Assembly (NCBI GenBank): GCA_041615815.1
Contig: JBFJCP010000003.1
Coordinates: forward strand, 1 to 64,000
Direction: 5' to 3'
DNA: 64,000 nucleotides
Source: Gemmatimonadales bacterium
GTDB taxonomy: Bacteria > Gemmatimonadota > Gemmatimonadetes > Gemmatimonadales > GWC2-71-9
Positions 7,390-9,934 of this stretch are shown here, in pieces; the first letter of the stretch is position 1, and every line of letters starts with the position of its first letter. The notes beneath the pieces were generated by a model. The model worked only from the letters and a program-made list of their open reading frames with translations. It did no database searches and had not been told where the DNA came from. A program made the translations under genes and the position numbers.

Positions 7390-7986
7390 ATGCGTCACGT
7401 GCTTTTCTCGGGCCTGATCCTTTCGTTCGCAGCGCTTCCCACGTCAGCGCAGCAGCCGCAGCGTCCCGACTCCCAGCCTCGCATGCAGGCCGTCACCCTG
7501 GGACCGGGCGCTCGCATCCGCGTGACGCACGGTTGCGGCCCGCGAACGACCTCCGCCGGCGATCTTCGCATGGTCTGCAAACGAGCCGTTGGAAGCCTGA
7601 CCACGTGGACCCCCTCCACCCTCACCCTGGAGCACGAAGCGTCCGGCAATTCGATGCAGCTCTCGCTCGCGTCGGCGCGGCGACTCGAGATCAGTCATGG
7701 CACCTACCCACCGGCGCGCGTGCGGGGGGCGGTGTTCGGAGCGCTCTTCGGGGCGCCGGTGGGATTCGGAATGGGCCTGATCCTCGAAGGTTTGGTTTGT
7801 GGATCCGCCTGTGGAGGCGAGATCATCAGCGGGAGCATGCTCGTCGGCATCGGCCTTGGCGTCGTGGGGGGTGCCCTCCTCACCAACGGCGCCCGCGACG
7901 ATTGGGTCAACGTTCCCCTCCGCCAGATCCGAAACACCAAACCTGCACCGCGCGGGACCCGGATTGGGCTGGCGTTGGTGTTTTAG
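7390..7986 (+). CDS. Hypothetical exported/membrane protein
   Basis: SD GGAGG, signal peptide, Gly-rich hydrophobic helices. Confidence 0.6.
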   Translation: MRHVLFSGLILSFAALPTSAQQPQRPDSQPRMQAVTLGPGARIRVTHGCGPRTTSAGDLRMVCKRAVGSLTTWTPSTLTLEHEASGNSMQLSLASARRLEISHGTYPPARVRGAVFGALFGAPVGFGMGLILEGLVCGSACGGEIISGSMLVGIGLGVVGGALLTNGARDDWVNVPLRQIRNTKPAPRGTRIGLALVF

Positions 7987-8195
7987 GCGGTCGGCGGATC
8001 AGTGGACCACGAACCGGAATAGCGCGCGCAAGAAGCCGCGGCTCGGCTGATGCCGCCGGAGCGACGGACATCCTCTCGCCCTTCCACCTCCCGGACCCTT
8101 CCACCGCTGCTGCCTTTCCCCCGCTACGCTCCCGCCTCTTCTCCCCGCCCGAATTTTGCTCTATCCTGTAGCCACCCACCAATCGGAGACCATCC

Positions 8196-8462
8196 ATGGC
8201 CCCCATCCGTGTCTATACCACACCCACGTGACCCTACTGCCGGGAGGCCAAGGATTGGCTTCGCGAGCACGACTGCGCATTCGAGGAGCTCGATGTCACC
8301 AAAGATGTGGAACTCCTGCGGGAGTGGCGCGCGCTGACCGGGGGCGCGGGGGTCCCCACGATCGCCCACGGCAACGATTTCATGGTGGGGTTCAATCCCG
8401 AGCGGCTCGCCCAGTTCGTCGACTGTTGCGCACACTGCTCACCGGTTCCTGACGCGGCGTAG
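8196..8462 (+). CDS. Glutaredoxin/NrdH-like protein, probable selenoprotein (UPYC); absent from the ORF track
   Basis: MAPIRVYTTPT-TGA(8229-8231)-PYCREAKDWLREH..FEELDV..GVPTI..MVGFNPERL..; the TGA sits at the first Cys of the CxxC motif. Confidence 0.85.
8241..8265 (+). promoter_or_regulatory. Candidate bacterial SECIS hairpin
   Basis: GAGGCCAA-GGA-TTGGCTTC stem-loop (8244-8262) with a G-rich apical loop 20 nt after the UGA. Confidence 0.65.
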
Positions 8463-8471
8463 CCCGAGTCC

Positions 8472-8810
8472 GTGACCGAACCACCCATCCACCACGACCC
8501 GGAGCGACAGCGGTTCGTCGCTTCCGTCGACGGCGACACGGCCTTCTTGCGCTATCAACGGGCGGGAGCCGACACGCTCGATTTCCGCAGCACTTTCGTG
8601 CCCCGCGCCCGTCGTCGGCAGGGCATGGGGCACCGGCTCGTGCGTCATGCCCTGGACTACGCCCGGGAAGCCGGCTATCGCGTGATCCCAACGTGTTGGT
8701 TCGTGCGCGAGATCATGGAGGAAACACCGGAGTATGGGCAGTTACGACAAGTCACCGGCCACGGGGGATCGGTAACCGGGGACCGGGAGGGACCCCGGGG
8801 GAGCGTATGA
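8472..8810 (+). CDS. Small GNAT N-acetyltransferase (YjdJ-like)
   Basis: RF..AFLRY..STFVP..RRQGMG..VIPTCWFV. Confidence 0.85.
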   Translation: MTEPPIHHDPERQRFVASVDGDTAFLRYQRAGADTLDFRSTFVPRARRRQGMGHRLVRHALDYAREAGYRVIPTCWFVREIMEETPEYGQLRQVTGHGGSVTGDREGPRGSV

Positions 8811-8940
8811 TCGCGGACCCCACTTCGAGGCGGCGTAGGTCCCCGGGAGCACTCCGTCGCCTGTCACCGTCACCCTGTACACCGAGCCCCTACCCGATGG
8901 CCCCCACCACCCCACCAAGCCCCCATCCCCTTACCACCCC

Positions 8941-8969
8941 TTGGCTTCCGAGCTCGCACGAGGTAGCTT
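8941..8969 (+). promoter_or_regulatory. Candidate sigma-70 promoter of prs
   Basis: TTGGCT-N17-TAGCTT ending 11 nt before the ATG. Confidence 0.4.
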
Positions 8970-8980
8970 GCTAGGCTCCC

Positions 8981-9934
8981 ATGGCTGAGATTTCGCTTCG
9001 TAGCAGCAAGATGTTGCTCATGTGCGGGACCGCCAATCGCCCCCTGGCGGAGGCGATCGGGGCCGAAGTGCACCAACCGTTGTGCAGCGTCACGATTCGG
9101 CGGTTTGCCGACGGCGAGATCTTCGTCAAGATCGATGAGAACGTGCGTGGGCAGGACGTCTTCATCGTGCAGCCCACCAATCCGCCGGCTGAGAACATCC
9201 TCGAGCTGCTGCTCTTGATCGATGCGGCCAAGCGGGCCAGTGCGGCACGGGTCACGGCGGTGGTACCCTACTTCGGGTACGCCCGGCAGGATCGGAAAGA
9301 CCAGCCGCGGGTGGCCATCAGCGCGAAACTGATGGCGAATGTCATTACGACGGCAGGCGCCGATCGCGTGCTGGCGATCGACTTCCACCAGCACCAGCTC
9401 CAGGGATTCTTCGACATCCCGGTGGACCACTTGTATGCGGCGCCGGTCCTCGTGCAGCACTACCGCCAGAAGCGGATGCACCACCCCGTCGTCGTGGCCC
9501 CGGACGTGGGGGCGGCCAAGATGGCACGAGGCTTCGCCAAGCGACTCGATGCGTCGCTGGCCATCATCGACAAGCGACGCCCCTCGGCAAACATCGCCGA
9601 GGTCGTGAACGTCGTGGGAGAGGTCGAGGGCCGAGATTGTCTCCTCGTGGATGACATGATCGACACGGCGGGCACCATGGTCGAGGCGGCCACGGCGCTC
9701 GCGCGGCTGGGCGCGAACAATGTGTACTGCTGCGCGTCTCACGCGTTGCTCTCGGGACCTGCGGTGGACCGTATCTCCGCCTCACCGCTGAAAGAGGTGG
9801 CCGTCACCGACACCATCGCCATTCCGAGGGAGCGAGCGTTCGACAAGCTGCGCGTTCTGTCCATCGCGCCGCTCCTCGCACAGGCGATTCGGTTTACCCA
9901 CAGCGATCAGTCGGTGAGTTCGTTGTTTGATTGA
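8981..9934 (+). CDS. prs: Ribose-phosphate pyrophosphokinase
   Basis: RFADGE, PYFGYARQDRK, LVDDMIDTAGT. Confidence 0.97.
   Translation: MAEISLRSSKMLLMCGTANRPLAEAIGAEVHQPLCSVTIRRFADGEIFVKIDENVRGQDVFIVQPTNPPAENILELLLLIDAAKRASAARVTAVVPYFGYARQDRKDQPRVAISAKLMANVITTAGADRVLAIDFHQHQLQGFFDIPVDHLYAAPVLVQHYRQKRMHHPVVVAPDVGAAKMARGFAKRLDASLAIIDKRRPSANIAEVVNVVGEVEGRDCLLVDDMIDTAGTMVEAATALARLGANNVYCCASHALLSGPAVDRISASPLKEVAVTDTIAIPRERAFDKLRVLSIAPLLAQAIRFTHSDQSVSSLFD

Follow-up and report, generated by a model that had tools for sequence, protein, structure and literature searches.

Background

Glutaredoxins that carry selenocysteine (Sec, U) in a UxxC site appear among the prokaryotic selenoprotein families in the table of PMC13188914 and are also described in PMC7642778, and the UxxC glutaredoxin chemistry itself is already known. 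According to the account in PMC7642778, cGrx1 is a native selenoprotein with a U/C-P-x-C site in which the first residue attacks and the second resolves, with glutathione (GSH) as the reductant. For the small redoxin BC3987, PMC3720550 proposes that Thr8 stabilises the buried thiolate, lowering the pKa of the cysteine. Comparable 'Grx-like' proteins of Deinococcus, which lacks GSH and uses bacillithiol (BSH), are treated as thioredoxin-like in PMC8945050. The bacterial SECIS (bSECIS) consensus as given in PMC13188914 is a loop of 3-9 nt with a G among its first two positions, a stem of 4-16 bp, and a distance of 16-37 nt between the UGA and the loop.

Our literature searches found no published description of the redoxin clade presented here, nor one of the Gemmatimonadota selenoproteome. 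The string 'Gemmatimonad' has no occurrence in PMC13188914 or in the main text of the BSepDB paper (PMC13326102); BSepDB may already list the clade.

Results and discussion

A glutaredoxin-fold gene with one in-frame TGA

The gene lies in a 64,000-nucleotide stretch of Gemmatimonadales DNA, the whole of which we call the window, and the source genome (G000) is 4.19 Mb long and 95.7 % complete. It starts with ATG at 8196 and stops with TAG at 8460-8462, and its sole in-frame TGA is codon 12. An earlier interpretation made from the letters alone (the sequence-only reading) had described this ATG, a GGAG Shine-Dalgarno and a TGA-interrupted frame of 88 residues, and we re-derived the same translation. 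We judge it highly probable that the gene encodes a selenoprotein with a glutaredoxin (Grx) fold. It is predicted to work as a small reductase of disulfides, with thioredoxin reductase and not glutathione as the likely means of recharging it. The parts of the locus are:

8185..8188, + strand, Shine-Dalgarno-like GGAG 7 nt 5' of the ATG, read from the sequence and of presumed function
8196..8462, + strand, 88-aa glutaredoxin-fold (NrdH/YruB-like) gene with one TGA read through
8217..8219, + strand, Thr8 of the [ST]-x3-(U/C)xxC motif, invariant in alignment A1
8229..8231, + strand, TGA in frame, expected to encode Sec12 as the predicted nucleophile of U-P-Y-C; TGA in 34/38 and TGC in 4/38 orthologous genes
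8238..8240, + strand, Cys15, predicted resolving cysteine; a Cys codon in 38/38 orthologous genes and invariant in A1
8244..8262, + strand, SECIS-like hairpin; conserved core 8247-8251 with 8255-8259, GGA loop 8252-8254
8274..8276, + strand, Cys27, an extra cysteine typical of the clade; in 32/34 TGA genes and nearly invariant in A1
8355..8357, + strand, Pro54 of G-V-P at the cis-proline place of the thioredoxin fold, invariant in A1; cis state predicted from the fold family
8424..8429, + strand, Cys77-Cys78, where the C-terminal helix ends; one or both kept in 34/34 TGA genes
8472..8810, + strand, GNAT-family gene 3' of the stop after a 9-nt gap (PF14542, E 9.4e-24)

With Cys written for U, the read-through protein scored 53.4 bits against the Pfam Glutaredoxin model PF00462 (cut-off 22.9). 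No second match to this model was found in the source genome, and in its only match the TGA indeed occupies the first Cys of the CxxC motif, as the sequence-only reading had it. A structure model (pLDDT 90.4) has the Grx topology with a helix at 68-80. Searching structures with this model gave A. fulgidus Grx, M. tuberculosis NrdH, B. cereus BC3987 and cGrx1 as the nearest folds, and the best PDB sequence match was 7C10, 'Dithiol cGrx1' (E 4.2e-17). The criteria of a Sec glutaredoxin, namely PF00462 over its cut-off, the Grx fold, UxxC and the cis-Pro position, were all found in this protein. Near the C-terminus, Cys77 is kept in 27 and Cys78 in 28 of the 34 TGA genes and one or the other in all 34, a pattern that is not significant alone as about one double loss is expected by chance.

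In the window, the redoxin gene is flanked by the GNAT gene and prs. The GNAT gene adjoins it in 3 of 36 loci, which are the three genomes of the same genus only, and is not a conserved partner. Scanning 7950-9000 for promoters and terminators returned 0 and 0 sites. On the 5' side of the redoxin gene, a 35-nt stretch (8032-8067) is matched in all four sequencing runs by short contigs of other organisms with unlike flanks; it is possibly a small dispersed repeat.

Evidence for selenocysteine at codon 12

That the TGA of codon 12 is recoded as Sec is, in our estimate, close to certain. A search for the Sec machinery, one of the checks proposed with the sequence-only reading, found all components in the source genome over curated cut-offs: selA (507 bits, cut-off 267.9), selB (362.5 bits, cut-off 242.25), selD (368.3 bits, cut-off 125) and tRNA-Sec (71.6, cut-off 47), the last reported by ARAGORN as tRNA-SeC(tca) with a TCA anticodon. 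The selD gene itself has one in-frame TGA, at the catalytic position.

Several other genes of the source genome read through TGA, which is what a genome-wide code change, with TGA read as Trp, Cys or Gly, would produce. Most of the confirmed read-throughs, however, are at catalytic-Cys motif positions (SelD, AhpD-like CxxU, Prx-like TxxU), and the tRNA-Sec has the TCA anticodon. TGA is also the ordinary stop of several orthologues, and selA, selB and trxB have no internal stops. We give a code change a negligible probability.

To place the TGA among relatives, we compiled 46 close-clade loci from two collection scans (best 80 of 453 and best 80 of 424 relatives). L131, cut by a contig end, and L048, with no match before residue 24, were dropped from the orthologue set, and merging identical sequences resulted in 38 distinct orthologous genes. 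Among the matches listed for this close clade, 34 of the 38 genes have TGA and 4 have TGC at the site, so that the pairing of TGA and Cys at one column, a second check proposed beforehand, was found. No second stop occurs in codons 13-84 of the 34 TGA genes. Downstream of the TGA, their codon differences from the window amount to 782 synonymous versus 658 non-synonymous.

A nonsense mutation (pseudogene) or an assembly error would take a single change from TGC to TGA; Cys orthologues exist (4/38), and the stability of the hairpin described below is ordinary. Yet 34 distinct genes share this TGA, none of them with another stop and all together with a synonymous excess, and the Sec machinery is complete. 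The TGA is also unchanged in contigs of 4/4 sequencing runs. Contigs of three runs agree with the window over the entire stretch, and the fourth, which comes from another study and a diverged strain (depth 4.4), has 18 differences over 7900-8531, none of them in the TGA or the hairpin. Conservation effectively refutes a pseudogene or an error, which we consider very improbable.

The sequence-only reading also expected standard gene callers to miss the gene. This is borne out in the protein databases, where 20 of 42 matches have the N-terminal CxxC segment and 22 lack it. Three N-terminally shortened records apparently correspond to the TGA loci L031, L032 and L034, suggesting that callers cut Sec forms short and, in consequence, that Cys forms may be commoner than 4/38. 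Reading the TGA as Sec corrects the annotation of the 22 public records without the active-site end, which list a selenoprotein as if it were a hypothetical fragment.

A SECIS-like hairpin with a conserved core

The hairpin at 8244-8262 has 8 pairs (one G-U) around the GGA loop at 8252-8254; its stem starts 12 nt and its loop 20 nt from the TGA. Compared by hand, the 3-nt GGA loop, the 8 bp and the distance of 20 nt agree with the bSECIS consensus as stated in PMC13188914. The 8-bp SECIS-like hairpin of the sequence-only reading is thus present and fits the consensus, and its core is conserved, but the conserved core is 5-6 bp and not 8. In the whole genome and all six frames, 367 of 102,251 TGA triplets (0.36 %) are followed by a hairpin of 5 bp or more whose GGN triloop begins between +18 and +24. 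The folding energy of 62 nt is unremarkable (z -0.63; 48 of 200 shuffles fold as well), and we dropped it as evidence for a SECIS since such a value is uninformative.

Pairs +16/+28 to +19/+25 form in 34/34 TGA genes and +20/+24 in 32/34, whereas the outer pairs are present in only 8/34 (+13/+31) and 16/34 (+14/+30). In 20 of the 34 TGA genes we found pairing in 95 % of cells versus 5-60 % when slid, and in these same 20 genes examined for covariation 0 pairs were altered on both sides.

Codon choice in the stem points the same way. Ala18 is GCC in 27/27 TGA genes compared to 57/177 elsewhere in the same genes, and where residue 18 is Val the codon is GTC (7/7), which exchanges C-G for U-G and leaves the pair intact. 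Lys19 is AAG in 34/34 (58/76 elsewhere in the same genes). Asp20 is GAT in 29/29, a minority codon used for 48/171 elsewhere in the same genes and 40 % genome-wide; Ala at residue 20 is GCT in 3/3, which keeps the U. Some further columns (Phe, Ile) likewise show a single codon throughout, but there it is the majority codon.

The loop-closing U at +24 is found in 32/34 TGA genes versus 0/4 Cys genes, a Sec/Cys contrast for which the Fisher p of 2e-4 is overstated because there are only 4 Cys genes and the sequences are related. The Cys genes retain 3-4 of the 5 core pairs since the protein sequence largely dictates them. Taken together, the aligned sequences provide good evidence for what appears to be RNA-level selection on the hairpin tied to the TGA. 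The natural Sec and Cys orthologues, nearly identical to each other and with a SECIS that loosens once Sec is lost, form a tidy test system.

Distribution of the Sec and Cys forms

The gene is present in 11 of 401 genomes of the phylum sample, 9 with TGA and 2 with Cys, and the carriers are spread over 4 families of the class. Besides the source genome, selA and selD are found in 10/10 carriers and tRNA-Sec in 9/10, and all 11 carriers have a SelD with an in-frame TGA. Matches to selA occur in 320 of 401 Gemmatimonadota-group genomes (317 over cut-off, both Cys carriers included; the tally of 401 includes the unpublished genome G186), which makes co-occurrence with selA necessary but weak evidence. 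We rejected it as a discriminating test on account of this base rate of 80 % and because both Cys carriers keep selA. Gemmatimonadota looks like a broadly Sec-using phylum; in genus g53, selA was found in 1 of 15 genomes.

All 60 of the more distant loci have TGT or TGC at the site. Outside the clade, however, the patterns searched are biased towards Cys forms, so that this count is no proof of Sec being limited to the clade. The clade has a support of 100/97 in the tree. On this tree of 86 columns, the Sec and Cys forms are interleaved so that 9 changes are needed. Well-supported branches force at least 3 of these, and the tree does not fix the root state or the direction of change. The 'Cys' group of the tree (n=25) includes the outgroup protein P0050 and 21 database proteins known by protein only. 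The clade's switches between Sec and Cys, if true, constitute a natural series for comparing the two residues.

A plasmid search returned 23 records, all under 60 % identity, and the one unannotated match inspected has Cys. In two Dehalococcoidia relatives (L097 and L107), the site is Cys and the protein is much extended at its C-terminus.

Other candidate selenoproteins of the source genome

Our TGA read-through scans of the source genome are rough filters that missed SelD and do not amount to an inventory. They gave four AhpD/CMD-like CxxU genes (L211-L214) at C2:9355(+), C26:8839(+), C25:34050(-) and C2:215260(+), which are likely further selenoproteins. Two of the proteins have NCBIfam AhpD matches, one has a Pfam CMD match and one (L214) has no Pfam match at 1e-5. 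L211 (C2:9355) shares the geometry of the window gene, with a GGT loop at +21 on a stem of 8 bp. Two more are likely to be selenoproteins. L216 at C26:31428(+) is peroxiredoxin-like and has a TxxU motif, with an Arg at the place for which the scan gives no more than a weak 6-bp stem. L215 at C55:1025(-) is OsmC-like (PF02566); its TGA takes the position of the first conserved Cys, and a hairpin with a GGA loop follows at some distance downstream. Finally, a methyltransferase gene (L217, C52:6348(-)) reads through a TGA directly after Cys and has a weak hairpin; its matches to ArsM-type and UXPK-star selenoprotein models are weak, all far below cut-off.

Proposed mechanism and reductant

Given recoding, we hold with great confidence that the protein is a thiol-disulfide reductase. 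Following established SelB/bSECIS biology, SelB-Sec-tRNA would bind the hairpin whose GGA loop lies 20 nt after the UGA, and Sec would be inserted at codon 12. By analogy with cGrx1, BC3987 and NrdH, the Sec12 selenolate would then attack the substrate disulfide, and Cys15, probably with the help of Thr8, would resolve the mixed selenenylsulfide into an internal Se-S bond, which NADPH-TrxB may reduce.

For the reductant we lean towards TrxB; bacillithiol is a possibility that we regard as rather unlikely, and glutathione or another reductant is less likely again. None of the 11 carrier genomes (91-97 % complete) has GshB over cut-off; the best GshB-like match among them, in G183, is full-length and under cut-off with 188.9 of 299 bits. 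TrxB and BshC are both over cut-off in 11/11 carriers, as is Bdr (YpdA) in the source genome. BrxA/B (PF06491) is found in 11/11 carriers and in 13/15 of the non-carriers tested (24/26 genomes), and no match to BrxC was found in the source genome. The bacillithiol genes of the source genome are BshC at C5:117504-118904, Bdr at C4:64057-64995 and BrxA/B at C4:34992-35399. In a congeneric genome (G002, C93:23258-23601), BrxA/B is matched in two pieces in different frames, which is a frameshift or an assembly error.

The lack of GshB over cut-off, TrxB in 11/11 carriers, a bacillithiol slot already filled by BrxA/B and the thioredoxin-like precedent of Deinococcus together favour TrxB. A NrdH/YruB-like redoxin recycled by thioredoxin reductase is more likely, on this genomic evidence, than a true glutathione-dependent Grx. 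The name 'glutaredoxin-like' given in the sequence-only reading consequently describes the fold and probably not a dependence on glutathione, with GshB over cut-off in 0/11 carriers.

The same selenoprotein might instead serve the bacillithiol system as the Grx-fold equivalent of a bacilliredoxin, either by debacillithiolating proteins or through recycling with BSH and Bdr. BshC in 11/11 carriers, Bdr/YpdA in the source genome and the failure of GshB to reach its cut-off in any carrier are consistent with this, and so are the Grx-type xPYC site and the description of the nearest solved relative with a small-molecule thiol. We nevertheless consider it unlikely: canonical BrxA/B (PF06491) is already in 11/11 carriers, the fold neighbours NrdH and BC3987 belong to a group linked to thioredoxin reductase, and the Grx-like proteins of BSH-using Deinococcus are treated as thioredoxin-like in PMC8945050. 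Bacillithiol coupling, if true, would link selenium to BSH redox chemistry. A still broader scheme, which is doubtful, would have a bacillithiol-coupled Sec redoxin in glutathione-less Gemmatimonadota in which Cys27 and Cys77/78 form a second redox or metal site that regulates or relays electrons, and in which Sec and Cys switched at least three times among lineages keeping the Sec machinery.

A classical glutathione-dependent Sec glutaredoxin, with GSH imported or made non-canonically, would suit the PF00462 match, the xPYC motif and the closest solved relative, cGrx1, which is described with GSH in the account of PMC7642778. The source genome also has one GCS2-family ligase. It has no match to PF04262, though, and no carrier has GshB over cut-off, while the score against the GRX_bact model is 42.3 of 90 bits. 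Moreover, the GshB match of the source genome is partial (positions 97-311, 78 bits) and presumably reads as a RimK-type ligase. We consider glutathione dependence of this classical kind improbable.

Candidate clients and gene neighbourhood

The likeliest clients of the redoxin may be MsrA or the peroxidases of the source genome (Prx- and AhpD-like, several having a TGA of their own in place of the motif Cys). The neighbourhood points to no client, and no conserved partner gene was found among 36 loci in a survey of ORF clusters seen in at least 2 of them, few of which are annotated. The commonest neighbour, a divergent UvrD-type helicase gene, occurs at 10 of 36 loci within one subclade.

At two loci (L040:1751-2884 and L124:651-1886), a same-strand SBF-family transporter gene (PF01758) precedes the redoxin gene, which is about 115 nt downstream. 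We take this transporter to resemble the arsenite exporter Acr3, hinting that the Sec redoxin was recruited to arsenic resistance at these loci. At two others (L032:13-891 and L120:336-1952), a same-strand gene with Rieske and glutamate-synthase FMN domains is followed by the redoxin gene after about 50 nt.

Comparison with known systems

The protein resembles cGrx1 of Clostridium/Alkaliphilus oremlandii OhILAs (7C10/7C12) both in fold (TM 0.74/0.88, rmsd 1.2 A) and in having Sec as the first residue of the U/C-P-x-C site. It differs in sequence (about 30 % identity), in coming from another phylum, and in the extra Cys27 and Cys77/78. cGrx1 is described with GSH, whereas GSH synthesis was not found in carriers of the window gene. 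cGrx1 is also the proposed reductant of Sec-MsrA, while the single MsrA of the source genome has Cys and no internal stop, and we rejected a tandem use with Sec-MsrA as in C. oremlandii.

No model match for the protein was found to the bacilliredoxins BrxA/B (PF06491) or BrxC (TIGR04019). The UXX-star families (NF041212, NF041114, NF041211) are likewise Grx-like selenoproteins, and with C for U the score against NF041212 is 60.5 bits, near the cut-off of 66 and below it, so that membership was rejected. The UXX-star name refers to a Sec two residues before the stop. The window gene has no second TGA near its C-terminus and ends in TAG, and its protein is UxxC where the listing in PMC13188914 gives UxxT or GxGU for UXX-star families 1 and 2.

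NrdH-redoxins (TIGR02194) share the Grx fold combined with a predicted thioredoxin-like recycling, and they take ranks 2, 5, 6 and 10 in the fold search. Membership was rejected with 44.2 of 85.75 bits and no nrd operon in the window; the NrdH motif is S-G-F-R-P, and the window protein has V-G-F-N-P.

The small redoxins of the YruB/BC3987/Cp9 type (TIGR02196; 3ZIJ) have Cys where the window protein is predicted to have Sec. A thioredoxin reductase or peroxiredoxin gene neither adjoins the redoxin gene in the window nor is common to the 36 loci, and with 67.2 bits against a cut-off of 88.55 formal membership of YruB was rejected. TIGR02196 is nonetheless the top NCBIfam match (E 1.3e-18), and BC3987 (3ZIJ) aligns from 1-76 to 1-76 with TM 0.75-0.79 and with its Thr8, Cys12 and Cys15 in register with Thr8, the predicted Sec12 and Cys15 of the window protein.
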